From: a virus
Taxonomy: Duplodnaviria > Caudoviricetes
DNA length: 26,750 nt
Reading direction: 5' to 3' (one strand)
IMG/VR virus record: IMGVR_UViG_3300017713_000069
Location: 1-26,750 of that record
The notes under the pieces were generated by a model. That model did not search any database, was not told the DNA's origin, and worked only from the letters and a program-made list of their open reading frames with translations. Position numbers and translations under genes: made by a program. Below are positions 2,862 to 21,573 of the stretch, in pieces; the stretch's first letter is position 1; every line of letters begins with the position of its first letter.

Positions 2862-5800
2862 ATGCCTACTACTCAAAGAAATTTTATAGCTGGACGAATG
2901 AACAAGAGCGTTGATGAACGCCTTGTGCCTAATGGTGAATATATAAATGCTGTTAACGTTAGGCTTGGCTCTACCGAACAATCAGAAGTCGGGTCGGTTG
3001 AAAATTCAAAAGGAAATCAAAAGCTTACTTCAATAGAGTATTTAAACGTGCCACTAAGCTCAGAAGCAAAATGTATTGGCTCTTTACAGGATGGTCAGCG
3101 CGAAACAATAATATGGTTTGTGCACGACCCTGCGTTTACAGGCTCACCTACTGGGAAGCTCGACATGGTCGTTTCTTTCAATGTAGTGGAAAATACACTT
3201 AATTATCATTTAATAAGTGTAAATGACGGTGGAGGAGTTAACACAACTTTAAATTTTAATGACAAGTTTTTAATCACGGGTGTCGATAGGGTGGATGACT
3301 TATTGTTTTTTACAGACAATATAAATCCCCCAAGATTTATAAATATTTTAAGACCCTACGACATTCCAATAGGGACTCCTTTGGTTGATGTCTTTACATC
3401 TGAAGAGATATTAGTAATTAAAAAACCACCAGCCACATCACCATCTATATCTTTACGCGCCTTAAGTGGTGAAGAAAATTTTTTAGAAACAAGGTTTATT
3501 AGTTTTGCGTACAGATATCAATACGAAGATGGAGAATACTCTGCTTTATCCCAATTTTCAGAACCTGCTTTTCAGCCTGTTGGATTTGATTTTAGCACAG
3601 ACTCAGGTCTTAACGAGGGCATGCAAAATGCCTTTAACTCAGTTCAGGTAACATATAATTCAGGTTCAAATTTAGTAAAACAAATAGAAGTAGTATTTAA
3701 AGAATCTACAAGTAGTGTTATAAAATCTATTGAAAAATTTAACAAGGAAGAATTAGGTCTGGCTAACAATACAAATTATAATTTAGATTTTACAAACAGT
3801 AAGATATTTACCGTGTTGCCCAATACTGAAATAGTAAGGTTGTTTGACAATGTTCCTTTAAAAGCTCAAGCTCAAACTATTATGGGTAATCGGTTGGTTT
3901 ATGGCAACTATGTTGACGGTTTTGATTTAATTGACTTAAACACAAACCCAGTAAAATTAGAATACACCGTTGGTTTAGTGTCTGAAGAGATTGGAGCTGG
4001 AGATGTTTCTGATGAAACTGCTCCGCAAGATTATTCTATTGATGGCCCTGTTACAATACAAAATGCAAGAGTTAATTTTGACTTAAATGGATTGGAATTG
4101 AAAGCTGGTGCTACCATTACTTTTGATATTCGTTTTGACCACTCTCAATTTAGTGGACAAACTCCTTTTCCTTCAGAAACAACTGACAATATAGACATAT
4201 CATTTGCTTTTAATTTACCAAGTGATTTTAATAGTGTATATGAATTAGCTACAGACCCATTATTTACTGAAAGCGTTGGGACAGCAGCCAATATAAAACC
4301 TGTTTCTGGTCAGCCAGGTGATGAAACTTCTTGTGACGGTACAACTTTTACAGATTCTTTCAACTGCTTGATACCTCAAAACTTAGATTCATTAACAAAA
4401 TTTGCCAGCGGAATATCAGCTAACGGACAGGCAATACAGATATTTACTTCTCCAGGCAGTACTGAAATAGGTTTTTCATTGCTATCAATGGCTTATGTAG
4501 ATGATATAACAACCCCTACACAAACGGTTTATGAGTATTATGACATATCGTCTGCCGAAGGGTTTTATTTAGGATTAGGTAATCCAAAAAGCTTACATAG
4601 TAATAGAGACTATGAAATAGGCATTGTGTATATGGATGAATTTAATAGGTCTACTACAGCTTTAGTTAGTCCTAATAATACCACGCATATTCCTTGTGCC
4701 CTTTCAAGCTTTGCTAACAGAATAAAGGTTGAAATACCGCCTACTCAGTTAGCTCCAAAATGGGCTACAAAATACAAGTTTGTAATTAAACCTGATTTAG
4801 AAGATTATAATACAATATATACTAACATATTTTTTCTTGACCCCACAACTAATGCTACGTTCTTTTTATTAGATGGTGAAAACTCAAGGAAAGTAGAGGA
4901 GGGCGATAGGTTAATAGTAAAAAGAGATACGGAGGGGGCGACTACAAAATGTAGATTTGCCACAGTATTAGAAAAAGATGCTCAAACCGCAGACTTTTTA
5001 GACCCCGCTCCAAAAGATGGCCTTGGTGAAGATGTGCCTATCCCCGCTGGTACTTACATGAAAATATTAGCTAATGATTTTAACATTATTCAAGGAGATA
5101 ATCCTGTAATACAGGCAGGACAAAAGAAATCTACGGGGACAAGTGGTGGCTCATATCCTGTTGTTAGATACCCTTGTAACATTCCAGACCCCAATATATC
5201 TGGTAGTTTTATAGACTACACAATCCCTGCTGGCTCAAGAATAAAAATAGAAGCAGATTTTAATAGACCAGGGAAGGGGAGAAAGTGTGACGGCAGAAGA
5301 TATCAATTAGACTTAAACTTGACTTCATCTCAAGAATATGAAAACTTTAAAGAATGGTGGGATGGAGATAATGTTGAGACAAGATTAGGAGATGGCACAG
5401 CAACTGTTTCTGGAGACCCTGATTGCCCCGTACCGTATTTTCAAAACTTTTATGACGCTTCTTTTGCGGCTGATGATAATGATATAGATAGAAACCCGTG
5501 TATTTATAATTGGAGATACTATAGAGACTCCACAACAAATGAATTATTATTATTAGTTAGCGGAACAAACTCGTGTTCCGGAGCAACAAACGGCTCAAGA
5601 GACAGAAGGGCTCGTGTTAGTTTAACCATTTCTGTATTTAGGGCAGACAACACTATTGTTTTTGAAACTCAACCAGAGGACGCTACTCCAGATTTGTGGT
5701 ATGAGTCTTCTCAATCTTTTGAGATAGACACTGTAAATGGTTTTCATACGGGTAATGTTCAAAATCAAACCAGCGTACAATCTGCTGTTATTGACACTGC

Positions 5801-7295
5801 ATTTTTTAATTGTTATTCTTTTGGCAATGGTGTGGAAAGTTACAAAATAAGAGACTCAATAATAGGCAAAGAATTGGCTTTAGGTGAAAAAACCACCTCT
5901 ACTTCTGAAATAGATTTTAAAGAAGCGCACAGATTTGCAGACTTAACTTATAGCGGTGTTTACAATGACGAGTCTAATGTTAATAAGCTGAATGAATTTA
6001 ACTTAGGATTGTTAAACTTTAAACCTTTGGAAGATACGTTTGGCCCTATTAGAAAATTGGATGCAAGAGAAACAGATATACTTGTATTACAAGAAGATAA
6101 AATATCTTATGTATTAGCAGGGAAAAACCTTTTATCAGATTCAACAGGCGGAGGACAGGTAGCGTCAATTCCTGAAGTTTTAGGCACTCAAATCGCTCGC
6201 ATAGAACAATATGGTATTAGTAACAACCCAGAAAGTTATGTTCAGTGGGGGTACGATAAATTTTTTACTGACGCAAAAAGAGGTGTGGTATTAAAATTAT
6301 CTGGCTCAGGACAAAGCGAGCAGCTTACAGTGGTGTCAGAATTTGGAATGAGGTCTTATTTTAGAGATTTATTTATTGGAGCTCCAAACACCCAAAAGCT
6401 CGGAGGGTATGACCCGTATATGAACGAGTACGTTTTAAGCTCTAACATAGAAGAACTACCTGTAGATGTTCAATGTTTTGGATGCGGTTTTAAAAGGACA
6501 TTTTCAATTGAAACAGGGGAAACGATTGACTACTGCGTAAATACAGGTCAGCTTGTTGGGGATGTAAATGTAGATGTTATTATAACTGGAGGTAGCGCTT
6601 CGGTAATTGCTGAATATAATGGATTGTCTCAAAACATCTCATCAACAGGGACTCTTGTTATTGACAAGAACATAGTAAACAACGAAGAAGTAAGTATATC
6701 TTTAGGAGGAGTTACTGGAGCTATAGTTTCCGTTACAGTTAACTGTCCCGTTGCAGAAGAAATTACGATTACTCAAGTTTGCATTACAAATGCTACAGAT
6801 GCAGGGCAATTTATACATAATGATTACAGATGGGTAGATGGAACTTTTGTTTCTCCACTTCACTCTGAGCAAGTAGAATTTATAGATGATACTGCATCTA
6901 TAATTGTTTCACAATTTTCATCAATTACAGGGCCGCAAGGTGCAGGAGTAATTCCTGCAGATTCTGCTGATGTAAGTGTTATTAGCAGAAAAGCTCCACA
7001 AGATGATTTTGTTTTTGACCCTGCACAAAACGAATTATATTATTTAAGGACAGACACGGTTTATCAAAACACTCCCGCAGATATAATAAGTCTTTTGAAT
7101 GCTGCTGTTTCATTAACTATTGATACCTCTCAAGCGCCAGTGGCATATTCGGGTGAATTTCCAATGCCTAATTCTGGAAAATACCTATATTTGATATATG
7201 ATTACAGAAGCTCAGTAGAGGCTACTTTATGCTATTCTACAGCAGACTTAGAAGATGTTTGCTGTAATTGTAACGAACCTATACCACTATTCTAA
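2862..7295 (+). CDS. Tail stabilisation / muzzle protein (P22 gp10-like, crAss Tstab), N-terminal part plus Cys-containing C-terminal extension
   Basis: 1477 aa. N-terminus FIAGRMNKSVDERLVPNGEYINAVNVR, internal FAYRYQYEDGEYSALSQFS, GNRLVYGNY, YGISNNPES, FFTDAKRGVVLKL and GGYDPY are characteristic of this family as I recall it. Confidence 0.8.
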   Translation: MPTTQRNFIAGRMNKSVDERLVPNGEYINAVNVRLGSTEQSEVGSVENSKGNQKLTSIEYLNVPLSSEAKCIGSLQDGQRETIIWFVHDPAFTGSPTGKLDMVVSFNVVENTLNYHLISVNDGGGVNTTLNFNDKFLITGVDRVDDLLFFTDNINPPRFINILRPYDIPIGTPLVDVFTSEEILVIKKPPATSPSISLRALSGEENFLETRFISFAYRYQYEDGEYSALSQFSEPAFQPVGFDFSTDSGLNEGMQNAFNSVQVTYNSGSNLVKQIEVVFKESTSSVIKSIEKFNKEELGLANNTNYNLDFTNSKIFTVLPNTEIVRLFDNVPLKAQAQTIMGNRLVYGNYVDGFDLIDLNTNPVKLEYTVGLVSEEIGAGDVSDETAPQDYSIDGPVTIQNARVNFDLNGLELKAGATITFDIRFDHSQFSGQTPFPSETTDNIDISFAFNLPSDFNSVYELATDPLFTESVGTAANIKPVSGQPGDETSCDGTTFTDSFNCLIPQNLDSLTKFASGISANGQAIQIFTSPGSTEIGFSLLSMAYVDDITTPTQTVYEYYDISSAEGFYLGLGNPKSLHSNRDYEIGIVYMDEFNRSTTALVSPNNTTHIPCALSSFANRIKVEIPPTQLAPKWATKYKFVIKPDLEDYNTIYTNIFFLDPTTNATFFLLDGENSRKVEEGDRLIVKRDTEGATTKCRFATVLEKDAQTADFLDPAPKDGLGEDVPIPAGTYMKILANDFNIIQGDNPVIQAGQKKSTGTSGGSYPVVRYPCNIPDPNISGSFIDYTIPAGSRIKIEADFNRPGKGRKCDGRRYQLDLNLTSSQEYENFKEWWDGDNVETRLGDGTATVSGDPDCPVPYFQNFYDASFAADDNDIDRNPCIYNWRYYRDSTTNELLLLVSGTNSCSGATNGSRDRRARVSLTISVFRADNTIVFETQPEDATPDLWYESSQSFEIDTVNGFHTGNVQNQTSVQSAVIDTAFFNCYSFGNGVESYKIRDSIIGKELALGEKTTSTSEIDFKEAHRFADLTYSGVYNDESNVNKLNEFNLGLLNFKPLEDTFGPIRKLDARETDILVLQEDKISYVLAGKNLLSDSTGGGQVASIPEVLGTQIARIEQYGISNNPESYVQWGYDKFFTDAKRGVVLKLSGSGQSEQLTVVSEFGMRSYFRDLFIGAPNTQKLGGYDPYMNEYVLSSNIEELPVDVQCFGCGFKRTFSIETGETIDYCVNTGQLVGDVNVDVIITGGSASVIAEYNGLSQNISSTGTLVIDKNIVNNEEVSISLGGVTGAIVSVTVNCPVAEEITITQVCITNATDAGQFIHNDYRWVDGTFVSPLHSEQVEFIDDTASIIVSQFSSITGPQGAGVIPADSADVSVISRKAPQDDFVFDPAQNELYYLRTDTVYQNTPADIISLLNAAVSLTIDTSQAPVAYSGEFPMPNSGKYLYLIYDYRSSVEATLCYSTADLEDVCCNCNEPIPLF

Positions 7296-9868: not shown

Positions 9869-10405
9869 ATGGGTATATTAAGTGTATTCAAAAGGAAAAG
9901 GAAAAAACCTGAAGATATACTTCAATATGTTCACCAAAATAGAGGGTTATTGTGGGAAAATATTAGTGTCTTTAAAGACACTGTATTGCAACACGAGGGA
10001 AGTGTAAAAAACCACACGCCTGAAATGGAGGAACTTATGCCTGTTGAGCACAATCTCCAAGATGGTCTATACACCAGGGAGATATTTATGCCGAAAGGGA
10101 CACTGGTGGTTAGCTATATACATAAGCAAAACCACCCATCATTTTTTCTTAAAGGAGAGATGTCAGTTCTTTTAGATACAGGTGAGGTAAAAAGAATTAA
10201 AGCACCAATGAAGGTGATGACTGAAATAGGAACACAAAGAGTTGCATATATGCACGAAGATTGCACGTGGGTTTGTGTTTATAGGACAGATGCTGAAAAT
10301 ATTAAAGATGCGGAAAAGGAAGTTTATACAGAAAACTATAAAGACTTACCTGAACACGTTATAATAAATAAAGAACTACTATGTCAGGAGCAATTGCAGG
10401 ATTAG
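9869..10405 (+). CDS. Cupin-fold (double-stranded beta-helix) protein
   Basis: 178 aa. HNLQDGLYTREIFMPKGTLVVSYIHKQNHPSFFLKGEMSV...APMKVMTEIGTQRVAYMHED fits the cupin pattern with HxxxH. Confidence 0.75.
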   Translation: MGILSVFKRKRKKPEDILQYVHQNRGLLWENISVFKDTVLQHEGSVKNHTPEMEELMPVEHNLQDGLYTREIFMPKGTLVVSYIHKQNHPSFFLKGEMSVLLDTGEVKRIKAPMKVMTEIGTQRVAYMHEDCTWVCVYRTDAENIKDAEKEVYTENYKDLPEHVIINKELLCQEQLQD

Positions 10406-11220
10406 CTATAGGGGTGGGAACAGCCACCATGAGCTTCGTTCAAGCTGGAAAACAAAAAAGAATGATGGAAGACGCTGAACGGGCGGCTCAACAAGCTATG
10501 GCTGAAGTTGAAAAAGAACTTACCAAAAATGAATATGAAGCTTTGGCTATTCAAAAAGAACCATACGAGATTGCTCAAGATACACTAAAGTCGCAGGCAG
10601 CTACTGAGTTACAAGCTGTTAGAGAAGGCTCTCAGCGTGGAGTATTGGCTGGTTCACAAAGAGTAGGACAGGGAGTATTAGCGGCGGCTGGAGAACAGCG
10701 GACAGCTATGGGTAAAGAGCTTGGTGATTTAGACAAGTTGGTAGCGGCAGAAGAATCCAGGAAGTCAGACATTAAAGCTAACCTTAAGTTAGGGGAGGCT
10801 CAAGGGGCTCAACAAGCCATGAGAGATGCTCAGGCTGCAAGAGACGCTAACTTACAACAAGGTATAATGGGTGTGGCAAATGTAGCGCAACAGGGCTTAT
10901 CTATGCTTCCAGATTATGGTATGAGTTCAGAGGCTCGTGATATTAATGCTATGCAGCGTGATGTTAAAAAATCCGCTAAGCAAGACTTCTTGAATGCCGG
11001 GGGTACAAGAAAAGAATTTAGACAAAGTTATAATCCAGATACTGCATTTCAACAGGCTATAGGAGGAGTGACAATGACTCCAGGGCAGTTCAAAACATTT
11101 GGAAATAACAATATTGCATTTGATGAATTAGGTCAAATGTCGATGACAAATATTCAAGACCAATTGCTTCAAATGACACCCGAACAAAGACAAATGATAT
11201 CTGGTTTATTAGCCCAATAA
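10381..11220 (+). CDS. Internal virion / ejection protein (small, pilot-type)
   Basis: 279 aa. Hydrophobic Gly/Ala N-terminus (MSGAIAGLAIGVGTATMSF) followed by A/Q/E-rich helices. First of three ORFs of increasing size, the usual podovirus ejection-protein layout. Confidence 0.65.
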   Translation: MSGAIAGLAIGVGTATMSFVQAGKQKRMMEDAERAAQQAMAEVEKELTKNEYEALAIQKEPYEIAQDTLKSQAATELQAVREGSQRGVLAGSQRVGQGVLAAAGEQRTAMGKELGDLDKLVAAEESRKSDIKANLKLGEAQGAQQAMRDAQAARDANLQQGIMGVANVAQQGLSMLPDYGMSSEARDINAMQRDVKKSAKQDFLNAGGTRKEFRQSYNPDTAFQQAIGGVTMTPGQFKTFGNNNIAFDELGQMSMTNIQDQLLQMTPEQRQMISGLLAQ

Positions 11221-11228
11221 TTATATAG

Positions 11229-13154
11229 ATGGCAAAAAGTTATTACGGTTACGTAGAAAGAGAGGCCTCTTCAGGGGTAAACTGGGAACAGATAGGTTCA
11301 GAGCTAACATCCAAACTAAAACAAGCTGGAGATGAAAGAGCGGCTCGTAGACAAGCTATTGATGATGCTTCTAAAGAATACCAAACTACATTAGACGATG
11401 CTCCTTCCGGGGATTTTAAACCTGCAAACCAATTTGCATTAGAACACGCTGCATCCGCACAACAAGCTCGACTTATGCAAGACAGACTTTTAAAGTCAGG
11501 TCTATTGAAATCAAAGGACTATACTATACAGAGACAAAATTTAACTGACGGAACAAATGAACTATTCGGTTTGTCTAAAGAGTATCAAAAAGAGTACACC
11601 GAAAAAATGGCCAGGCTAAAAGCTGGCGAGTCTCAAGAATTAGAAGGATGGTTAATGTCTCAAATAGAAGGTTTATCTAATTTAAGAAACACCGGAACAT
11701 ATATAAACCCAGAGACAGGGGTTGTAAGTATTTCAAAAGTAGTAGACAAGGATGGCGTAAGAACCATGAGCGAAGACCCTAATGATTTTATGACTGTTAA
11801 CCAATTAAGAAACAGGCAAAAAACTAAGTATGACAACTTTAAAGTTGGCGCTACAATGCAAGCTGAGGCTGATAGACTTGGAAGCTACATAACTACCCTT
11901 CGTAGTGCTGGTGGCCCAGGATATTCAGGTCAATTAAAAAAATTGCTTGACCCCACACAAAGAGGTAAACTTAGTGGAGACCAAGCAAAAGCTGTAGATA
12001 GCTTTACAAAGATGGAGGATGATATGATTAACTCTTATATTACAGCAAATCCATTAAACGGTTTAGCGGTATTAACAAACTACGTAACTACTAATCCAGA
12101 AACAGGGAAACGATACGACCTTACGTTTGACGAGAAGGCTGCTAAAGCAGACCCTAATATGATTTTAGTACGTGATGATGGCAGCGGAACGATTGAACCT
12201 GTGTTTACTGAAGCTCAATCTAAGGTTGCGTTTGATGCGGTTAGAGCAAACTTCAGAAACCAGATTGACCGAGAGGAAACAGTATCTACTTACACTGAAC
12301 AACAAGAAACTGCTACACAAGAACAAGCTGGAAGGCGTGAAAAAGCAGAAGATAATGCGCTTAGCTCTTGGAACGACATTGCTTACGGCACTCCAGAAGA
12401 AAAGTCTACAGCCATCAATCAATTGCTTGGAACAGATAAAGCCAAAAAATCTGGCGTGATAGCTATTGACACTTCAGTACCAGGTGAAGTAGTAGTAACT
12501 TACACTGACTCTTCTAAGAACAGAACAATAAACTACGACCCAGATAATATAACTATTCAAGAGTGGGCTGAGCTTGGTAATGAGATACACGGAGTGGACG
12601 ATGTGGCTACAGTTCTTGAGCGTTCAGGAGGCGCAAGATTTGTAAAAGATGCAGAAGGCAATAGAATACCTGCACCATTAGACTTTTCTGAAACTTCCAT
12701 GACAGATGTGTTCGCAACCAGAGAAGGGAAAACAGAGAGAGAAACTGCTACGCAAACTACTACAAGATTGTTAGAAGAAGGTATACCTGATTTAGATTTA
12801 TCGCAAGAAGAAGAACCTTCTATAGCTTTGCAAAAATACTTTGAATCTAATCCTCCACCATTTGGCTTAAAAATAACTGATGTATTTGGCCCCCAACAAA
12901 AAAAGGTTGAGGTTAGTGGTACTGTAGCGGGTAAAAAAATAAGCAGAAAATTTGATGTAAGCAAGCCTGGTGCAATGAAAGAAATAAGAGATTACATTTT
13001 ATCGCAGACTGATTTAGAGTCACTGGCTTTAGACCCTTCAATTGCAAGTCAAAGAAGAAACTTATCATACACACCTCGCTCGCAAAGACAAGCAGGTAGT
13101 GGGGATGCCGGAGGAGGCACACCACCTGTAATAAACACATCAGGATATAACTAA
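11229..13154 (+). CDS. Internal virion / ejection protein (middle)
   Basis: 641 aa, helical and charged, lacks Cys. Positioned between the pilot-like and giant genes. Confidence 0.55.
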   Translation: MAKSYYGYVEREASSGVNWEQIGSELTSKLKQAGDERAARRQAIDDASKEYQTTLDDAPSGDFKPANQFALEHAASAQQARLMQDRLLKSGLLKSKDYTIQRQNLTDGTNELFGLSKEYQKEYTEKMARLKAGESQELEGWLMSQIEGLSNLRNTGTYINPETGVVSISKVVDKDGVRTMSEDPNDFMTVNQLRNRQKTKYDNFKVGATMQAEADRLGSYITTLRSAGGPGYSGQLKKLLDPTQRGKLSGDQAKAVDSFTKMEDDMINSYITANPLNGLAVLTNYVTTNPETGKRYDLTFDEKAAKADPNMILVRDDGSGTIEPVFTEAQSKVAFDAVRANFRNQIDREETVSTYTEQQETATQEQAGRREKAEDNALSSWNDIAYGTPEEKSTAINQLLGTDKAKKSGVIAIDTSVPGEVVVTYTDSSKNRTINYDPDNITIQEWAELGNEIHGVDDVATVLERSGGARFVKDAEGNRIPAPLDFSETSMTDVFATREGKTERETATQTTTRLLEEGIPDLDLSQEEEPSIALQKYFESNPPPFGLKITDVFGPQQKKVEVSGTVAGKKISRKFDVSKPGAMKEIRDYILSQTDLESLALDPSIASQRRNLSYTPRSQRQAGSGDAGGGTPPVINTSGYN

Positions 13155-13158
13155 TAAT

Positions 13159-16100
13159 ATGAACGAACAAGCTTTTATAGATGCTTATAATATGTTCCTT
13201 CAAGGAGGGTACAGAGGGTCTCGTGATGAATTTAGAACTCTGATTGAATCTAATCCAGATGCGATGAATGATTCTTTTGAGATTTTTAAAAGCGGTGGAT
13301 ACAATGGTAGTATACAGGACTATCAAGTATTAATCGGCGTAGCTCCTGGTGAAGTAAAAAAAAAAGACAAGCCCGTTTTGGATTCAGCTGGGGACGCTGG
13401 TTTATCGGGGTTATCAGATACTGAGCGTCAAGACACTCAGCAAATATCTTTACAGCCACAAGTCGAAGTGGCCCAAGACAACACACGGGTAGCACAGCAA
13501 AAATTTATTGACCCGCGCGTAGCCATTGAACAGCAAGAGCAGAGAGATGCTTTTGAGGCTCAAAGAGAAATAGATATGCAGGCTTTTAAAAAAGAAGAGC
13601 AGGCGCAGATTGAGGCTGATGCAGAGGGAAGAGAAAAACAATCACAGGCTTTACTACAAGACGTTGAGTTTTCAACAGTTTTAAATAACATAGACGCTTC
13701 GCTTATAGATATGGAAGAAGAGTCTGTTGTTCCATTTATGATGGACAACTTTCAAAAGTACGGATTTACTTTTGAGGAAACAGGCATGGGTGATGCTATG
13801 ACTGTAACCACTGCTGACGGAAAAGAAACCATAACAATAGACCTTGACCCGTTCCTTTCAAAAACAGAAGTGCTGGAGTCTAAAAAATTAAAAGACTTTA
13901 TTACACAGTTTGCGATTGAATCGGAAGAGGTAACTCCAGAGGAAAGTCTTAACCAAAAAGCTATGCGTGCACAGCAAATGCGTAAGTATGCAAGGCTTAA
14001 TGCGGATGGCTCACAATCAAGTGTATTATTCACTTCCTTTGAAGAAGATGGAAAGCATAAGGTTATTCCAACCTTATTTCCAAAAGACCCTAACTTATAC
14101 GGCTCTAATAAAAACACTTGGCTTGAGCTGGGGTTTGATGAAGCTAAAAAATTAGCGGAAGAAAGAGGGGAAGTTTTTGAGTTTGAAACTGAGGAAGAGG
14201 CTCAAGAGTTTGCAGAAGGTTCTTGGAAAGATAGACACTCTTCAGATGCTTTAGGAAACTCAGTATTTGGCGAAGAGGGGTATGACTTTTCTTCAGAAAA
14301 AAAACAGTATCAAAATTATTTAGATGTTCGAGATAAAATAGATTTTATTGAGGCAGAACAAGCTGAGTTTGGCACAGAATATTTGTCAGAATTAACAGAG
14401 GAGGAGCGTAAAAAATATGGCAATCTTTATGTAAATGGAATCATGCGTGATGACATTGGTGTGGTTTTAAAGGAATTGAAAGAACAAGAAGACACTTTGT
14501 TTGATTTGGTTATGGATGATGACAAAGTAAGATTGCGAGAGAAGTTAGATGTCGAGCTTGACAAAAAATATAACGCTATAGCACAAACAGCAGCTCGCTC
14601 AAACAATTATGCTGACCTATCTTTAGATAATTTAAACCTTCAATCATTACAAACATTTGGCGTAGGCTTAGACCAGTTAAACACTATTGTACCTAAAGAC
14701 GATACTGAAGCTAAATTAATTGAAGCGCTATCTGTACAAGCTACAGAGGCTAAAACACTAAAAACAAACGCCGCACAAAAATATGAACAAGCATTAACAT
14801 TCTACGATGCTAAGCATGACCAAACTATTAGAGGAGAGTTTGAGGACAACTGGGCAGCGGTATCGTCAGAACTTAAAAAAGGACTGGACAATGGTAATGC
14901 CGCAGAGGTAATACTACAACTGTCAACAGGAATGGCTTTTGATTTCGAAAAATTAGACATCAACAACCCGGATGATGTAAAGAAAGCTGCCAAGATGATT
15001 GCTCTTTTAAAAGGTAAGGCCGCTGAAAAGAAAGATGCTCGTGTCATGTCAAGATGGAATAGAGCCAAAGGATTTAAAGAAACTTTTCAAGTTGTAAAGG
15101 ATAACCCATTGGAGTTAAGTTTGGCATTGGCTATGAACTCAATAGGGCTTATGCTTCCATACGGGATAGAATTTATTACATCGGGCGCTTTGGGCGGGAT
15201 AGCAACAGGCGCAACTTATGGAGCTGCTGCCGGAGCTGCTGTCGGTGGTGTAGGTGCTGCACCAGGCGCTGTTGCAGGAGCAATCGCAGGGTTAGCAAAA
15301 GGCTTGAGGGCTGGATTTGCAGCAACATCTTTTGCGATGGAGTATAGCAATGCTTTTTTTGACGCAATGCAGGCTCAAGGATTAAACCCTTTAGACCCTC
15401 AAGATGTAGAAGACGCTGTAATGAGTGAAGAAATTTGGGCGGTAACAAAACAAAGGGGTGTAGCAAGAGGTGTCCCTATTGCTGTTGTAGATTATATATC
15501 TTTTGGATTAGCAGGTAAGATATTTAAAGCGGGAACATTTGCAAGCAGAGGCCGAAGAGCAGTAACCATGCTTGCAGAAAGGGGTGTATATGACCCCATT
15601 GCAGAATCAACTGGTGAAGCTTTAGCTCAAATAAATGTGGGTGATGAGATAGATTGGAAAGAGATAGCCGCAGAAGGGCTCGGAGGTTTTGGAAACAACT
15701 CTTCTGGTATGGCTGTCAACACTTTTGTCGATACCCGTAAACTAAGCAACATTGAATTGGCTGATGCTTTGACTGATGTTACATTTGTGGCTGACCAAAA
15801 AAATAGTGGCACACAAATATCAAACTGGGCAACTCGCATGGAGCGACTTGGACAGATTGATGCCGAGCAAAACCAAAGGATACAGGAAAACTTAGGGCTG
15901 TCTAAAGACGCAGATAATCTTTTAGATTTAGGTAGAGCTAAAAACAAACCTATAAACAGGGAGTTAAAAGGTCGTGTGATGCAACTACTTGCTGCAAGAG
16001 AAGAGTACAGCGCAACCGCCAACAGAAAATCAGTGTTTGGTAAACAAATAGCTGACATAAACAATGAGCTTGAATACATAGCTCAGAATAAAAAATTATT

Positions 16101-19100
16101 ACCTACAGAACAAAGAGCTTTATTAGAAGGTATATTTGAGCCGACTGCTGAGGTTCGTCAAGACGTGGGTAGATATCGTATTGATGGCAAGCGTGTGACC
16201 AGAGAAAAGTTTATAAAATATATAAATAAAAATTCAAAAGAGCGTTTGTTAACTAAAATGCTTACTATTGATAACGATGAAGAAGTTAATAACCTTGTAA
16301 AAAATAAATTAGATGCCGTTCAAGTCAGAGAAACAGAGACGGTGGATGTGGGCGAACAAGCCAGAGATGGCCAAGAAGTGGGAGAAGGAGTACCCCAACT
16401 CGAAGCCGCGCAACCTGAGACCACCGAAACGCAAGATACTACCATAGAAATAGAAACTAAAATTAAAGATGATGCAAAACAAACAAGTGAAACCCCAGCA
16501 GGAAGCAGATTATTCAGCGAGCCCGTTAAGGATGCGAGCTCAATTGCTCAAAGAACTGCAGAAAGAACAGGAGTTGATTTCAAAGAAGCAGAGAGACTAA
16601 GTAAAATTGACGAAGACAGAGCCAGGAGGATAGCTCAAACTTATGAGAAGTTAGAGTCCAACCCTCAAGACCCTGAAGTTCAGAGCTCCTACAGAGCTTT
16701 GATTGATGAAACAGTAGAGCAGTATAATGACATTATATCAGAAGGATATACCATTGAGCTTGTTGATGAGAACCCCTACAATAATTCAGCTGAAATGTTA
16801 CGGGATGTTAATGAGAATAAAACATTAAAAATATTTTCTACTGAATCAGGGTTTGGAACTGAAGGAGTTACCGATACAGACAGGGCTAATAATTTAATGT
16901 TAGAAAGCACCACGTTTGTAGACAAGAATGGAAGACCTATGTTGGCGAATGATGTCTTTAGGTTTGTTCACGACTTCTTTGGACACGGCACATTGGGCAA
17001 TAGCTTTGGGCCTATTGGTGAGGAAAACGCCTGGAACGTACACTCAAGAATGTATTCTCCTTTGGCAAGACGAGCCATGACCACAGAGACACGAGGGCAA
17101 AACTCTTGGGTAAACTTTTCTGGAGTAAACAACAAAGCTCAAGATTTAATAAACGACTCAAGAGCATTAAGAAAAGAAGGTAAGTTTGAAGAAGCACAAG
17201 CCAAGGTAGATGAAGCTATGAAGCTGTTTAAGTTTGCTGACCAAAAGAACGCTCTAATGCCAGAGGAGTTTGTTCAGTTAGACGAGGAGGTTGATGTTAA
17301 GCCTACTGAAGCTCAAAGCTTAGAGGCTATTGTAGAGCCGGGTAGACCTCAACAAGAACAAACAACTGAACAACTAACACTTGAGATAGACCAAACAAAG
17401 GGTAGGCGTGGGATAAATCAAACTGAATTTTTTGTAGAGGCCGCTAATGAAAACGTAGATAACGCAAATAAGCTGACTGCGTTTATGGGTAAAGTATTCC
17501 CTGGTGTTGTTATTTCTACTGACCAACAGACGTTTGACGAAGTAGTAACTTCTGACCAAGTACAAAAGTATAGTGTGGGTGAAAATATTATTTATGGTAT
17601 GACTGTTAATGGTGACATATATATCAACCCACAAGTTCATAATAGCGAATCTAAAATGTTTAACACCGCCATTCACGAAATGGGTCACGTGTGGGTAAAG
17701 CATTTAAAGACTACAGAAAAGGGTCGTGCTATTTACAATCAGGGTATTACACTTGTAAAAGAAACTCCGTTATATTCTGAGCAATTAAAAAAATATAAAG
17801 GAGACGAGACCAGGGCCGCTGAAGAGGCTATGGCTATTCTTATTGGAGACAAGGGGCAGTCTATAGCTGACGCTGCTGTAAAAAGTAAATTCCAACAATG
17901 GCTTGCTGGTATGTGGAACTATATCAAGTCACAGTTTAAAATGTCTAAAGACTTAAGTGTTGATGAAATTCAAGACATGAATCTTGACGGGTTTATCGGT
18001 ACTGCGCTTGCAGATATATTTTCAGGTAGAGAAATAAAACTAACAGACCAACAGCTTACTGAACTTAAAGATGCTGACGTTGCGTTTAGTAGCGGAGTGT
18101 CAATGGAACAAATAATAACAACAGGTAGACAAAACGGATTTACTGACGCCAGTATAAAAGAGGTGCTTATAGGTAGAGGTTTTAACAAGACCGACATAAA
18201 CACAGCTATGGAGGTAAGGGTAAACGATATCGTAATGCCTAAAGAGTTTAGTCGTGTTGAAGGTGGAGTACAAGAAGCTACTAAATTATTTGAGGATGTC
18301 AGGAATGATTTGAATGAGTTTACTACAGATGAAACCTCTATGTCTGAAGTCAGACAGAAAGGCTTAGACTTAATGAAAGCTCACCCAGTGTATCAAGCAC
18401 AGCCGGAGCAGGTTCAGATGGAGCTTTTAAGCGCCTTTGACAGAACTATAGGTACACGAGCCAACCCTACTGTACAAAAAGAAATATCGTCCATTAGAAA
18501 GGCTCTGAGGGAGCGTAAGGCTGGACAAAAATTAGTTAAAGAAACGCAAGCTAAACTTACTGCGTTTATTAAAAGTGCATTACCTGTTTCAAATACATAT
18601 ACTCAGGCACAAATCAATAAGCTTATTAGGCGTGTAGCCAAGGCTACTACTGACACACTGCAAGCTGACGCTGAGTTTGTATTCAAAATAGTAGAGCAAC
18701 AACAGAACAAGATAAAGAATGCTATACTAAAGGATATGCTTAAGGTTGTAAGGACTAAAGCAAAGGCTGCATTCTCGGAGTCTGGAAAGAGAAGAGCTAA
18801 AGGATTAAGCAAAGAAGGTCAATCTTATTTCGGGCAAGTGCAAAAAGTATTAAAGGCCGCAATGACAAATGATGTTGAGGCAATGAACGACCTGCGCCAA
18901 ACTCTGATAGACAATGACTCAAAGATAAATGAGCTAATAGAGAAGAGACGTAATGGAGAAGCCATTACTCAAAGAGAACAAGACTTAGTTTTCTTAGCTA
19001 TGGCAATGGATAACTTTGGAGATGTAATGAATATGGACTTAGCTCAAGTTCAAGAGCTTATGTCTATGGTTAATAATATTAAAGCCTCATCTATAGCTAC

Positions 19101-21573
19101 GTTTAAATCCAGAAGGATGGAGCGTGTGCAAAAATATAGAGAGCAGTCTGACCAGGCAACGGAACAAATTAAAGACACTAACCCAGAGTTATTTGACGAG
19201 GAAGGAAACTTGTTGACGCAACAAGAATTAAGTCAAAAAAGAAAAGTAGTTCAAGAGCATTTTAAAAAGTTTAAAATCGGTCAAGGATTAATTGCTCTTT
19301 CAAAAGAAATGCTTTTCAAAAACACTAAAGAATTTTTAAGACAATCAACAATGTTCTTGAAACACTTGGGTACTCTTACAAATTTAGTTGACAGGGTAAC
19401 CAAGAACAAATCTATATTTACAGACAAGGTATATCGCTCTCTTAATAGAATGGACAACGACTACAACGCCGGGGTGTTTGAATCTGAAGACAAAATGAAT
19501 ACTATAGCAAATAGTATTGACGGAATAACAAAAGGGTATAATCAAATAAAAAGAATGATACCCACCGATGTGTTTACTCTAAATGTAAAAAACACAAAAA
19601 CAGGGCGAGTCCGTAAAGATAAGTTTAGCGGTGACCAGCTTATGCGTATTTATGCTTTAAGTAAAAATGATGTTCAAAGAGAAAAGCTTATAGCTCAAAT
19701 AGGAGAGGAAGGCATACAACAAGTAGAAGAAAGCTTAACGCCTGAGCTAAAGGAGTTTGTAGATAAAACTGTAGACTTTTTAAGCAATGAATATTATGAG
19801 GGAGTAAATTCTGTATACTCTCAAATGAATGATATAAACTTAGGGTATGTAGAAAATTATTTTCCAACCATCACGGAAACAGACAAACTTCCTGAAAACT
19901 CAATAAATGAGGGAGATTTTGATGGGATATTCAACGCTGAAACAGCGCCAGCTTTAAAAGAAAGAACTGATAGAACATCAGACATAGACTTAGATGTTGC
20001 TGATTTTACCTCTGCATTAGACAACCATTTCCAAACCATGGAAAAATATAAGTCTTATGCTGAAGGAACAAAAATGCTTAATGCTTTCTTTCAAATACCA
20101 GCCGTGGACACTTTATTGACTGAGATGGGCATACTAAGGAACATGAAGAAGGCTGTTAACTTTGCAGTCAACCCAAATGCAGGGATGAAAGATAGTCTAA
20201 GCATCAAAGCATTAGATGTGTTGCAAGTAAAATTTACCGGGTTTGCTTTAGCTTTTAAAGCCATACAAATATTAAAGCAAGCTACATCTTTTGTAAACGC
20301 ATATTCAGATTATTCTTATTTTCCTAAAGACTCCAAAACACCTCAGCCTTTAAGAAGCGCATTAGACCTGCCAATGTTTATGATTGACGGGGCTAAGGTT
20401 GTTCTTAGCCTGGCCAAAGATTTAGTTGGAAAGGATGGTGCTATACACCAAGCTATGGAAATTTCCCCTACGTTTAGAAAAAGAATTGCACAGGGGTTGG
20501 AGGGAGATATTCATGGATTAGAGAGTGGCTCAAAAACTTTTAGGCCTGTATCCAAATCAAACACAAAGGTTGGTAGAGCCATTAGGCTTTTTAAAACAGC
20601 TGCTGCTTCTCCTACTATAATCGGAGATGTTCTCGGAGTTATGGGATATATGATTAACTACAAAAGAAATATAGCTAACGGCATGAGCAAAGCCGAAGCG
20701 GTAGAAGCATTCAATGATTACAACGCGACACAGCAATCACGTAGAGGGGCTGATAAGATACCATTGCAAATGAATAGTAATGCACTTCAAAGAACTTTTA
20801 CTATGTTTGGCAGCACTTTATTCTTGCAGATAAACAAAGTAATGCAGTCCGGAACTAATATAATAAGAGCGGCAAAGGATAGAAAATTTCCTCGTGTTAA
20901 AGATGCAAGAGATTTTTATATAAACCTTGCGGTTGCCAACGTTCTTTTTGTTGGAGTTTCAAACATAGCTAAGTTTGTCAAGGGCGATGAAGAAGATAAA
21001 GAAGCGGCTATAAAAAAGATGTTAGAGGCAATGACGGGTATGAATTTAGCTTATCAGATACCTTTAGTCGGGGGGGTTGTTGAAGGTTTTGATGTGGCAG
21101 GCAAGATAATAGCCGCAGCAAAGGGAGAAGAATATAAGAGAGGAAAAATATATGACGATAATATCGTTAACCCTATTGAATCCGTGATGCGTAAAATAAA
21201 AAAGGCCATGGCAAATGAAGAAGGCTTCTTTAAATCACAAATACTCCCTATAATGGAAGTAGTTATTGGAGCGCAGGTAGACCCGTTTATTGGCTTAGCT
21301 AACTTGTTTAGCGAAGACGCTACCCCCGAAGAGTTTGAGGACAATATGTATGACGTGATTGGTATATCTCCATCTTATCGTCCAGAGAAAGACAAATCCA
21401 AGAAAAAGCCCATGAGCAAAACTGATATGAAAAAATTCTTCCCTCAGACATACGATGACTTGTATGGCCCCCAAGGTTCTTTAAGGGAGGTTGAAGAAGT
21501 CAAAAGAGAAATAGCAAGAGAGAAAAGACAACGAAAAAAAGAACTGAAAGAAGAGATATATGGTAATCAATAA
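13159..21573 (+). CDS. Giant internal virion / ejection protein, polyvalent type, with glycine-zipper segment and zincin-like metallopeptidase motifs
   Basis: 2804 aa. Gly/Ala hydrophobic stretch ~15115-15340. HDFFGH..GEENAW from 16969. IYINP..HEMGH..EEAMA with HExxH at 17674-17688. Long helical C-terminal region. Confidence 0.8.
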   Translation: MNEQAFIDAYNMFLQGGYRGSRDEFRTLIESNPDAMNDSFEIFKSGGYNGSIQDYQVLIGVAPGEVKKKDKPVLDSAGDAGLSGLSDTERQDTQQISLQPQVEVAQDNTRVAQQKFIDPRVAIEQQEQRDAFEAQREIDMQAFKKEEQAQIEADAEGREKQSQALLQDVEFSTVLNNIDASLIDMEEESVVPFMMDNFQKYGFTFEETGMGDAMTVTTADGKETITIDLDPFLSKTEVLESKKLKDFITQFAIESEEVTPEESLNQKAMRAQQMRKYARLNADGSQSSVLFTSFEEDGKHKVIPTLFPKDPNLYGSNKNTWLELGFDEAKKLAEERGEVFEFETEEEAQEFAEGSWKDRHSSDALGNSVFGEEGYDFSSEKKQYQNYLDVRDKIDFIEAEQAEFGTEYLSELTEEERKKYGNLYVNGIMRDDIGVVLKELKEQEDTLFDLVMDDDKVRLREKLDVELDKKYNAIAQTAARSNNYADLSLDNLNLQSLQTFGVGLDQLNTIVPKDDTEAKLIEALSVQATEAKTLKTNAAQKYEQALTFYDAKHDQTIRGEFEDNWAAVSSELKKGLDNGNAAEVILQLSTGMAFDFEKLDINNPDDVKKAAKMIALLKGKAAEKKDARVMSRWNRAKGFKETFQVVKDNPLELSLALAMNSIGLMLPYGIEFITSGALGGIATGATYGAAAGAAVGGVGAAPGAVAGAIAGLAKGLRAGFAATSFAMEYSNAFFDAMQAQGLNPLDPQDVEDAVMSEEIWAVTKQRGVARGVPIAVVDYISFGLAGKIFKAGTFASRGRRAVTMLAERGVYDPIAESTGEALAQINVGDEIDWKEIAAEGLGGFGNNSSGMAVNTFVDTRKLSNIELADALTDVTFVADQKNSGTQISNWATRMERLGQIDAEQNQRIQENLGLSKDADNLLDLGRAKNKPINRELKGRVMQLLAAREEYSATANRKSVFGKQIADINNELEYIAQNKKLLPTEQRALLEGIFEPTAEVRQDVGRYRIDGKRVTREKFIKYINKNSKERLLTKMLTIDNDEEVNNLVKNKLDAVQVRETETVDVGEQARDGQEVGEGVPQLEAAQPETTETQDTTIEIETKIKDDAKQTSETPAGSRLFSEPVKDASSIAQRTAERTGVDFKEAERLSKIDEDRARRIAQTYEKLESNPQDPEVQSSYRALIDETVEQYNDIISEGYTIELVDENPYNNSAEMLRDVNENKTLKIFSTESGFGTEGVTDTDRANNLMLESTTFVDKNGRPMLANDVFRFVHDFFGHGTLGNSFGPIGEENAWNVHSRMYSPLARRAMTTETRGQNSWVNFSGVNNKAQDLINDSRALRKEGKFEEAQAKVDEAMKLFKFADQKNALMPEEFVQLDEEVDVKPTEAQSLEAIVEPGRPQQEQTTEQLTLEIDQTKGRRGINQTEFFVEAANENVDNANKLTAFMGKVFPGVVISTDQQTFDEVVTSDQVQKYSVGENIIYGMTVNGDIYINPQVHNSESKMFNTAIHEMGHVWVKHLKTTEKGRAIYNQGITLVKETPLYSEQLKKYKGDETRAAEEAMAILIGDKGQSIADAAVKSKFQQWLAGMWNYIKSQFKMSKDLSVDEIQDMNLDGFIGTALADIFSGREIKLTDQQLTELKDADVAFSSGVSMEQIITTGRQNGFTDASIKEVLIGRGFNKTDINTAMEVRVNDIVMPKEFSRVEGGVQEATKLFEDVRNDLNEFTTDETSMSEVRQKGLDLMKAHPVYQAQPEQVQMELLSAFDRTIGTRANPTVQKEISSIRKALRERKAGQKLVKETQAKLTAFIKSALPVSNTYTQAQINKLIRRVAKATTDTLQADAEFVFKIVEQQQNKIKNAILKDMLKVVRTKAKAAFSESGKRRAKGLSKEGQSYFGQVQKVLKAAMTNDVEAMNDLRQTLIDNDSKINELIEKRRNGEAITQREQDLVFLAMAMDNFGDVMNMDLAQVQELMSMVNNIKASSIATFKSRRMERVQKYREQSDQATEQIKDTNPELFDEEGNLLTQQELSQKRKVVQEHFKKFKIGQGLIALSKEMLFKNTKEFLRQSTMFLKHLGTLTNLVDRVTKNKSIFTDKVYRSLNRMDNDYNAGVFESEDKMNTIANSIDGITKGYNQIKRMIPTDVFTLNVKNTKTGRVRKDKFSGDQLMRIYALSKNDVQREKLIAQIGEEGIQQVEESLTPELKEFVDKTVDFLSNEYYEGVNSVYSQMNDINLGYVENYFPTITETDKLPENSINEGDFDGIFNAETAPALKERTDRTSDIDLDVADFTSALDNHFQTMEKYKSYAEGTKMLNAFFQIPAVDTLLTEMGILRNMKKAVNFAVNPNAGMKDSLSIKALDVLQVKFTGFALAFKAIQILKQATSFVNAYSDYSYFPKDSKTPQPLRSALDLPMFMIDGAKVVLSLAKDLVGKDGAIHQAMEISPTFRKRIAQGLEGDIHGLESGSKTFRPVSKSNTKVGRAIRLFKTAAASPTIIGDVLGVMGYMINYKRNIANGMSKAEAVEAFNDYNATQQSRRGADKIPLQMNSNALQRTFTMFGSTLFLQINKVMQSGTNIIRAAKDRKFPRVKDARDFYINLAVANVLFVGVSNIAKFVKGDEEDKEAAIKKMLEAMTGMNLAYQIPLVGGVVEGFDVAGKIIAAAKGEEYKRGKIYDDNIVNPIESVMRKIKKAMANEEGFFKSQILPIMEVVIGAQVDPFIGLANLFSEDATPEEFEDNMYDVIGISPSYRPEKDKSKKKPMSKTDMKKFFPQTYDDLYGPQGSLREVEEVKREIAREKRQRKKELKEEIYGNQ
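13162..13335 (+). repeat. Tandem 30-aa repeat at the N-terminus of the giant protein
   Basis: NEQAFIDAYNMFLQGGYRGSRDEFRTLI vs NPDAMNDSFEIFKSGGYNGSIQDYQVLI: 11/28 identical, ungapped. Confidence 0.8.
13356..13424 (+). other. A10 slippery run with -1 frame extension RQARFGFSWGRWFIGVIRY* (candidate programmed frameshift or transcriptional slippage)
   Basis: GTA AAA AAA AAA GAC, with A run 13356-13365. The -1 frame is open from 13353 to TGA 13422-13424. A TGA at 13350-13352 and the lack of a start codon mean it is reachable only by slippage. Confidence 0.5.
16313..16447 (+). CDS. Nested +1-frame small basic protein MPFKSEKQRRWMWANKPEMAKKWEKEYPNSKPRNLRPPKRKILP (44 aa)
   Basis: ATG 16313 to TAG 16447 inside the giant gene. 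A-rich leader GTAAAAAATAAATTAG. 73/135 G+C (54%), far above the surroundings. Resembles a small phage protein family beginning MPFKSEKQRR that I recall as stand-alone genes. Confidence 0.7.
   Translation: MPFKSEKQRRWMWANKPEMAKKWEKEYPNSKPRNLRPPKRKILP
16469..16600 (+). CDS. Second nested +1-frame small ORF MMQNKQVKPQQEADYSASPLRMRAQLLKELQKEQELISKKQRD (43 aa)
   Basis: ATG 16469 (or 16472) to TAA 16600. Starts 21 nt after the first nested ORF in the same frame. A-rich leader AAATAGAAACTAAAATTAAAG. Confidence 0.4.
   Translation: MMQNKQVKPQQEADYSASPLRMRAQLLKELQKEQELISKKQRD

Follow-up and report, generated by a model that had tools for sequence, protein, structure and literature searches.

Organization of the locus

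The window, by which we mean the whole 26,750-nt stretch of DNA that was analysed, carries a marine phage virion module made up of ring-like structural genes, a muzzle-like gene, two small virion genes and an ORF encoding 2804 aa; the last four of these, and the slip-site features at the start of the long ORF, lie on the + strand. The muzzle-like gene (2862-7295) encodes a tail protein resembling the crassvirus muzzle (PF25731), which ties the phage to the podoviruses of Flavobacteriia. It has matches in 87 phage records, mostly from Flavobacterium and Cellulophaga phages, and given that the closest cultured relatives by this gene infect Cellulophaga or Flavobacterium, the host of the window phage is probably also a member of the Flavobacteriia. 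A separate gene at 9042-9845 matches the C-terminal domain of the crassvirus muzzle (PF25729), and a 580-aa gene belonging to no family sits between the two.

Further downstream are genes for a 279-aa virion protein with a hydrophobic N-terminus (10381-11220, phrog_13764), likely the first ejection protein, and for a 641-aa protein (11229-13154, phrog_35506), likely the second, which occupies the position of the MS-detected gp121 of phi18:3. The giant ORF (13159-21573) comes next and completes the trio of virion genes that follows the tail muzzle gene, the arrangement expected of podovirus ejection or cargo genes, and its position matches that of gp123 of phi18:3, which is annotated as an MS-detected virion protein. 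Judged from this position and from the domains of its relatives, the frame-0 product is likely a virion protein of the cargo/ejection class and the last of three such proteins. Either ART-PolyVal or DUF7178 is found midway along the relatives, suggesting that the middle of the giant protein may be a swappable payload region. Residues 1139-1322 (window 16573-17124) match phrog_3170 in a region unlike the family consensus, and among the 14 window proteins scanned there was no match to a tape-measure or chaperone family.

The probable slip site and the hidden frame

The giant ORF opens with a small domain (13159-13356) of two 30-aa helix-GYxG-helix repeats that have 11 of 30 residues in common and are predicted to form four helices, which bears out the compact two-repeat domain described in the initial annotation; it belongs to no Pfam or PHROG family. 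The domain ends, within the first 3% of the gene, at a run of ten As (A10, 13356-13365) in the sequence GTA AAA AAA AAA GAC, which is read V-K-K-K in frame 0, contains the heptamer A_AAA_AAA, and is the sole run of at least nine As on the + strand of the window. In the -1 frame a TGA (13350-13352) is followed by S-K-K-K, a 19-residue tail (13365-13421) and a second TGA (13422-13424). The tail (feature 13365-13424, 19 codons plus the stop) has 6 aromatic residues, 4 Arg and no acidic residue, and carries a Gly/aromatic/Arg motif predicted to fold as a beta-hairpin. Irrespective of the point within the run at which the frame changes, the -1 product is 88 aa long and shares its N-terminal domain with the giant protein. 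The run, the two stops, the tail and the 88-aa product are all as first annotated, and the -1 frame does lack a start codon, as had also been noted, for which reason independent translation of this frame was rejected. An internal promoter-like site at 13277-13305 is one of 5 such sites found, where 2.4 are expected by chance.

The main contig reads A10 in four of four DNA runs, with no indel listed, and the run is thus not an assembly error, it being understood that contigs lose rare variants and that near-identical records may be the source of the window DNA itself.

Conservation of the run

With the window giant protein, 43 of 120 listed homologues were aligned. For the analysis of loci, the best 80 of 180 confirmed were fetched by mid-protein patterns, so that the set is unbiased toward the motif; the window and one GenBank record bring the total to 82, near-identical copies of the window being counted in. 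A run of at least nine As lies within the first 150 codons in 75 of the 82 loci, and the other seven comprise three cut by contig ends, two in which an A10 was missed by the start caller and two with an out-of-frame A9. In all 79 loci with an intact 5' end, such a run closes a small N-terminal domain. After thinning to 51 representatives, the run lengths were A10 in 43, A9 in 3, A11 in 3, and A12 and A13 in one each.

The surrounding genes avoid such runs. KKK elsewhere in the same genes is encoded entirely by AAA in only 1 of 85 instances, despite AAA making up 58% of Lys codons, and just three other runs of at least nine As occur in 426,837 nt of these genes. A conserved homopolymer of nine or more As or Ts in a coding sequence, set in a background that avoids them, is what is expected of transcriptional slippage. 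Runs broken by AAG codons and scattered stops in the -1 frame, either of which among homologues was to count against the initial annotation, were not seen in the relatives, and its claim of a conserved slip site is strongly supported by the conservation of the run, with the reservation that relatives are non-independent samples and P values are inflated.

Selection on the -1 peptide

Across the relatives the -1 tail conforms to the motif [YF]-G-[IF]-x-[FI]-G-R-W-F-[IF]-G, with a stop 4-7 residues on. The tails of the 51 representatives are 17-53 codons long; by comparison, 11.7% of 1307 control positions are open for 17 codons. Anchoring was possible for 47 tails, and in all 47 the stop falls 4-7 residues past the last Gly. 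When 6 of the 51 were dropped to leave the 45 tails with canonical spacing, mean BLOSUM similarity was 3.66 in the -1 frame, 1.22 in frame 0 and 0.97 in the +1 frame, two Gly columns being fixed by the anchoring. Variation is greatest at the third base of the -1 codon.

A comparison of pairs, anchored on the run alone with the motif ignored, gave the same frame. Among the ten closest disjoint pairs, silent and replacing codon changes numbered 17 and 6 in the -1 frame and 5 and 19 in frame 0; over all 20 pairs the counts were 45 and 86 in the -1 frame and 26 and 116 in frame 0, random changes being expected to be silent about 21-24% of the time. A frame-free pattern scan, its pattern built from the same family and its match set overlapping the loci fetched by mid-protein patterns, placed the motif in the -1 frame in 106 of 106 distinct matches, and the long ORF continued in frame 0 in 105 of these. 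The inverted arrangement, in which the short product would be in frame and the giant one reached by a shift, was considered and found in none of the 106. A looser FGW pattern returned 120 matches, mostly chance; 24 had the right layout, 19 of these with the motif in the -1 frame, and about 11 true members were judged by eye.

These comparisons show purifying selection on the -1 peptide, and the silent and replacing counts together with the BLOSUM similarity strongly support the suspicion in the initial annotation that the selected frame is the hidden one. Given that the motif is found in the -1 frame and that selection acts on that frame, the 'EDGSL' linker mentioned there for related giant proteins reads as the shadow of G-R-W-F-I-G. 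On the opposite view, a conserved frame-0 linker, S-E-D-G-S, would give rise to the -1 motif incidentally, and the run would serve just to throttle output of the giant protein or be there by chance. A recurring S/E/D/G pattern is indeed present in frame 0, and random stretches of these A-rich genes are at times open when read in -1. Yet if only the frame-0 peptide is held fixed, about 3.5 of 51 tails would be expected to be open, and the third base is free at the invariant -1 Gly codons, so that frame 0 reads E, D, A or V there. The by-product explanation is already contradicted by the similarity in the -1 frame and by the changes between close pairs, and we regard it as extremely improbable. 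That the run throttles output of the 2804-aa protein, as had also been proposed, can be no more than a side effect, since throttling needs no conserved peptide. On these sequence comparisons the 88-aa protein is very probably made.

The +1 frame is also stop-free across the tail more often than expected (48 of 51 representatives, against about 25-26), and its continuation in the window (13364-13492) would give a 110-aa product. Where it is open, its stop lies at least 4 codons beyond the -1 stop. Among silent -1 positions, T is used in 11 of the 159 cases in which a +1 stop would result and in 105 of the 378 in which none would, many of the cases coming from one motif position, and the same comparison further down the linker gives 28% and 32%; the +1 null does not hold both peptides fixed. 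These counts suggest that messages with A9 may also be translated, the slip occurring in both directions.

Cultured phages

In each of the nine cultured phages examined (phi18:3, phi13:2, phi19:3, phi46:3, Gundel_1, phi38:1, Calle_1, elemoA and Panino), the run is present together with a tail rich in aromatic and basic residues that is read in the frame -1 to the giant ORF; the nine amount to about five independent types and represent Pachyviridae, Pervagoviridae, Elemovirus and Panino. In phi38:1 the A10 run lies in gp101, and the predicted -1 product includes the peptide AFGIEFYLWSGSFK; that of elemoA includes NSFGFSYTTTR and NNWGFGIFCWER. The tail is annotated in none of the nine records. 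Residues 168-1047 of the window giant protein gave no tblastn hits in these nine phages, and their N-domains look unlike that of the window. The tails of elemoA and Panino are long enough for two hairpins, and two Gly/aromatic hairpin motifs or three strands are found in some tails (L087:12733, L093:27493, P0242, P0243); tails of the latter kind may form a small beta-sheet and not a single hairpin.

An out-of-frame A9 occurs in five cultured records (L086:15507, L088:9268, L089:9313, L090:10250 and L093:27493), where it separates the N-domain from the giant ORF, and four of the five annotate the N-domain as a separate small gene. In phi18:3, phi13:2, phi19:3, phi46:3 and Panino these are likely homopolymer undercalls. 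The four Cellulophaga phages concerned were, we presume, pyrosequenced; the Panino genome was put together by Canu from Nanopore reads alone (PMC11590407), and its A9 is therefore likely an undercall. The slip site explains a recurrent annotation fault, in which the out-of-frame A9 of five cultured records cuts the N-domain off the giant ORF.

Polymerase or ribosome

The best explanation overall, to which we assign even weight, is that A10 is a likely programmed slip site from which one gene would yield two products that have their N-domain in common. At the conserved run, part of the mRNAs would gain one A from RNA polymerase, so that the gene would encode, besides the 2804-aa virion protein, an 88-aa protein that begins with the same N-domain and ends in a selected tail predicted to form a beta-hairpin; the ratio of the two would be governed by the length of the run, which is kept close to 10. 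The initial annotation had offered ribosomal -1 frameshifting and polymerase slippage side by side. Of these, polymerase slippage fits better, given the run length of 9-10, the weak A_AAA_AAA heptamer and the absence of stimulators, which favour it over classical -1 ribosomal frameshifting; the slip is probably transcriptional.

The same short protein could be made by the ribosome, either by sliding over the three AAA codons or by tandem slippage of tRNA-Lys into the -1 frame on A_AAA_AAA. An in-register heptamer that conforms to X_XXY_YYZ is present in all 51 representatives, mostly in the weak form (A_AAA_AAA in 48, and A_AAA_AAG, A_AAA_AAC and A_AAA_AAT in one each), and in 48 of 51 the last A of the run completes a frame-0 codon, G being the next base in 47, a register that a ribosomal mechanism would account for and that polymerase slippage does not require. 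Yet no run is shorter than nine, although the heptamer needs just seven As, and the stronger A_AAA_AAG occurs in the single case given above. Classical -1 frameshifting further calls for a conserved 3' structure, an SD-like stimulator or both, an upstream SD being one stimulator of frameshifting of the E. coli dnaX and IS type, and neither is conserved among the representatives. SD-like 4-mers lie upstream in 7 of 51, compared with 19% in controls, and the downstream sequence has a mean folding z of -0.04, with 1 of 51 below -2, in folds limited to stem-loops. The CAGC/GCTG arms of the hairpin put forward as a stimulator in the initial annotation are present in the window, but the 70-nt slip region there folds no better than shuffles (z of -0.99), and the structure is not conserved. 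Sliding in the E. coli PURE system needs at least 11 As (PMC4363877), a length reached by 5 of 51 runs, though the threshold in Flavobacteriia may differ. E. coli RNA polymerase, for its part, is reported to slip preferentially on poly(T) and weakly on short runs of A (PMC6260861), and this counts against polymerase slippage; the thresholds for slippage derive from E. coli and Thermus and not from Flavobacteriia. On this evidence the ribosomal route is the less likely of the two, though it carries real weight.

Were the run instead a replication-slippage tract subject to phase variation, the short protein would come from A11 genomes and the giant protein from A10 genomes. Some database proteins do come from assemblies with an indel in the run, 14 of 45 short proteins having matched the tail pattern, and an out-of-frame A9 is seen in 2 of 80 loci besides the five cultured records. 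Against this, seven such indel proteins that were looked up are single-member clusters, the Panino A9 is the likely undercall already described, and a genome without a likely essential virion protein should be unable to propagate alone. The DNA is moreover uniform at the run in the four DNA runs, which is the DNA half of what slippage producing heterogeneous mRNA predicts. We consider phase variation highly unlikely, and retain polymerase slippage as the preferred mechanism.

Predicted structure and proposed function of the short protein

AlphaFold2, run on 17 database proteins, predicted four helices, at a pLDDT of about 83, and a hairpin of two strands that turns at G-R, at about 55, the tail strands falling at residues 74-78 and 81-85 with low confidence. 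Strands of 5 residues are too short to span a bilayer alone. A predicted four-copy complex of the short protein scored 0.01, which we count neither way. Foldseek gave no match in the PDB at E≤0.001, a PDB sequence search gave a best E of 0.11, and the Atlas search gave no usable match; the best VIA match (Z 4.4, rmsd 3.3, 59 residues aligned) is a common helical arrangement. A BAM beta-signal was rejected for the tail, the last residue of which varies widely. The N-domain appears exchangeable, seemingly unrelated repeat types standing before the same slip cassette (the window compared with L227, L264, L289, L305, L091 and L093).

A role for the short protein was proposed from the position of the gene after the muzzle and two small virion genes, from the hairpin model, and from the occurrence of related N-domains beside transmembrane helices, described below. 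The cargo proteins of muzzle-tailed crassviruses (gp45-gp50) are expected to form an ejection channel (PMC10172136). They resemble the present case in having a muzzle-type tail followed by cargo genes, and differ in that the slip cassette was not found: the cargo genes of crAss001 and phi14:2 have no coding-strand run of at least nine As in the 50 kb of each examined. The position among virion genes and this expectation for crassviruses favour a co-packaged, envelope-gripping partner. We tentatively propose, at somewhat less than even weight, that the shared N-domain would bring the short protein into the particle together with the giant one and that at DNA ejection the cationic aromatic hairpin of the short protein would grip a membrane or LPS surface and tether or organise the ejected giant protein.

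A competing possibility, which we rate a little lower and which concerns function only, is that the short protein acts unpackaged inside the infected cell, as a cargo assembly chaperone in the manner of lambda gpG/gpGT or as a cationic, membrane-weakening lysis helper. The tails are about 17% Arg and 25% aromatic, a composition resembling that of cationic hairpin peptides, and the lambda G and GT products are ratio-controlled and absent from virions (PMC5009743). Set against this, the N-domain also belongs to a protein that has MS-detected virion proteins as its positional counterparts, and captured N-domains adjoin transmembrane helices, which suggests, indirectly, action at the envelope. Co-packaging with the giant protein remains the reading that we prefer.

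Comparison with known systems

The closest mechanism is that of Thermus thermophilus dnaX and the closest phage precedent is lambda G/GT. T. thermophilus dnaX is likewise a long ORF with an internal homopolymer of about 9 bases and a shorter product with the same N-terminus, tau and gamma arising by transcriptional slippage (PMC5009743); its shifted frames stop almost at once, however, and gamma is a truncation, whereas the phage -1 frame has its own selected peptide and the site lies near the very start of a virion gene. E. coli dnaX and IS-type sites also enter the -1 frame on Lys codons to make a short product by a shift, but use A_AAA_AAG with stimulators (PMC5009743), neither of which is general among the phages, where that heptamer is found in 1 of 51 and a 3' structure or SD-like element is not conserved. 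Lambda gpG/gpGT shares with the phage site a recoding site widely conserved among phages and two products with a common N-domain in a set ratio, but there it is a short ORF of long-tailed phages that the shift lengthens, and both products are missing from the virion (PMC5009743); in the present podovirus-type phages a giant ORF, of 2804 aa in the window, is cut short, and the likeness noted is one of arrangement. In Shigella spa13, transcriptional slippage tunes parts of an injection machine, the type III secretion system, and the slip is required for the long functional product (PMC5009743), whereas in the phage the unslipped mRNA gives the long product. What sets the phage case apart from these precedents is that a selected peptide is gained while a giant virion ORF is truncated.

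Comparative analysis thus confirms a run and a selected hidden frame that are real, conserved and unannotated and that very probably bring about recoding, for which we propose the mechanism and function given above. Our literature search found no description of the slip site; most subscription papers and supplements lay outside the search, and proteomics tables could bear on the claim. The recoding would give phages of at least two named families and Elemovirus, including the model phage phi38:1, a conserved protein that had been hidden, and the site would be a second one, next to the tail-chaperone frameshift, at which recoding is broadly conserved in phages, in another gene class and probably by another mechanism. 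The claim of a slip is testable with existing public data for phi38:1, these being infection RNA-seq (SRP066570; PMC5335546), in SOLiD reads whose calls of long runs call for caution, and infection and virion proteomics (PMC13288928).

N-domains in membrane proteins

All 20 of 20 proteins compared match a phage N-domain, and reversed controls gave 0 hits. Twelve of them (P0275, P0126, P0155, P0269, P0272, P0276, P0278, P0279 and P0285-P0288) are membrane proteins with 1-4 N-domains of phage giant proteins, of various types (iE 2e-5 to 4e-43); in the other 8 no TM-like window is seen, and these resemble phage fragments. A transmembrane helix and four N-domain copies, of at least three types, are present in P0126, and P0155, P0275, P0276 and P0278 carry different cassettes on a common DnaJ-plus-transmembrane scaffold. 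Two near-exact copies are found in P0279 (DUF6804), and P0269, P0272 and P0285-P0288 each have one copy between two helices.

We hypothesize that these proteins may be decoys, sensors or superinfection-exclusion proteins, and they point to a possible new host defence. More speculatively, and in our estimate improbably, the muzzle-tailed podoviruses of Flavobacteriia would build an ejection machine from one slippage-split gene, comprising a short isoform with a membrane-gripping hairpin and a giant payload joined by a fast-changing N-domain, and hosts would have captured arrays of N-domains as membrane-anchored decoys or sensors that intercept ejection. If true, this would be an undescribed anti-phage system and would explain a swapped N-domain beside a fixed slip cassette. 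PADLOC gave no hit on the N-domain membrane proteins save one weak match, a scan of metagenome contigs for P0272 found nothing, and alignment A3 matched 0 of 24 genomes. P0285 matched 1 of 401 genomes, that one being the chosen centre genome, and such fusions therefore look rare. The sole fusion seen in genomic context, P0275 (L340:3626-5116), has DUF4268 and type I restriction genes as neighbours in a Flavobacteriales MAG.
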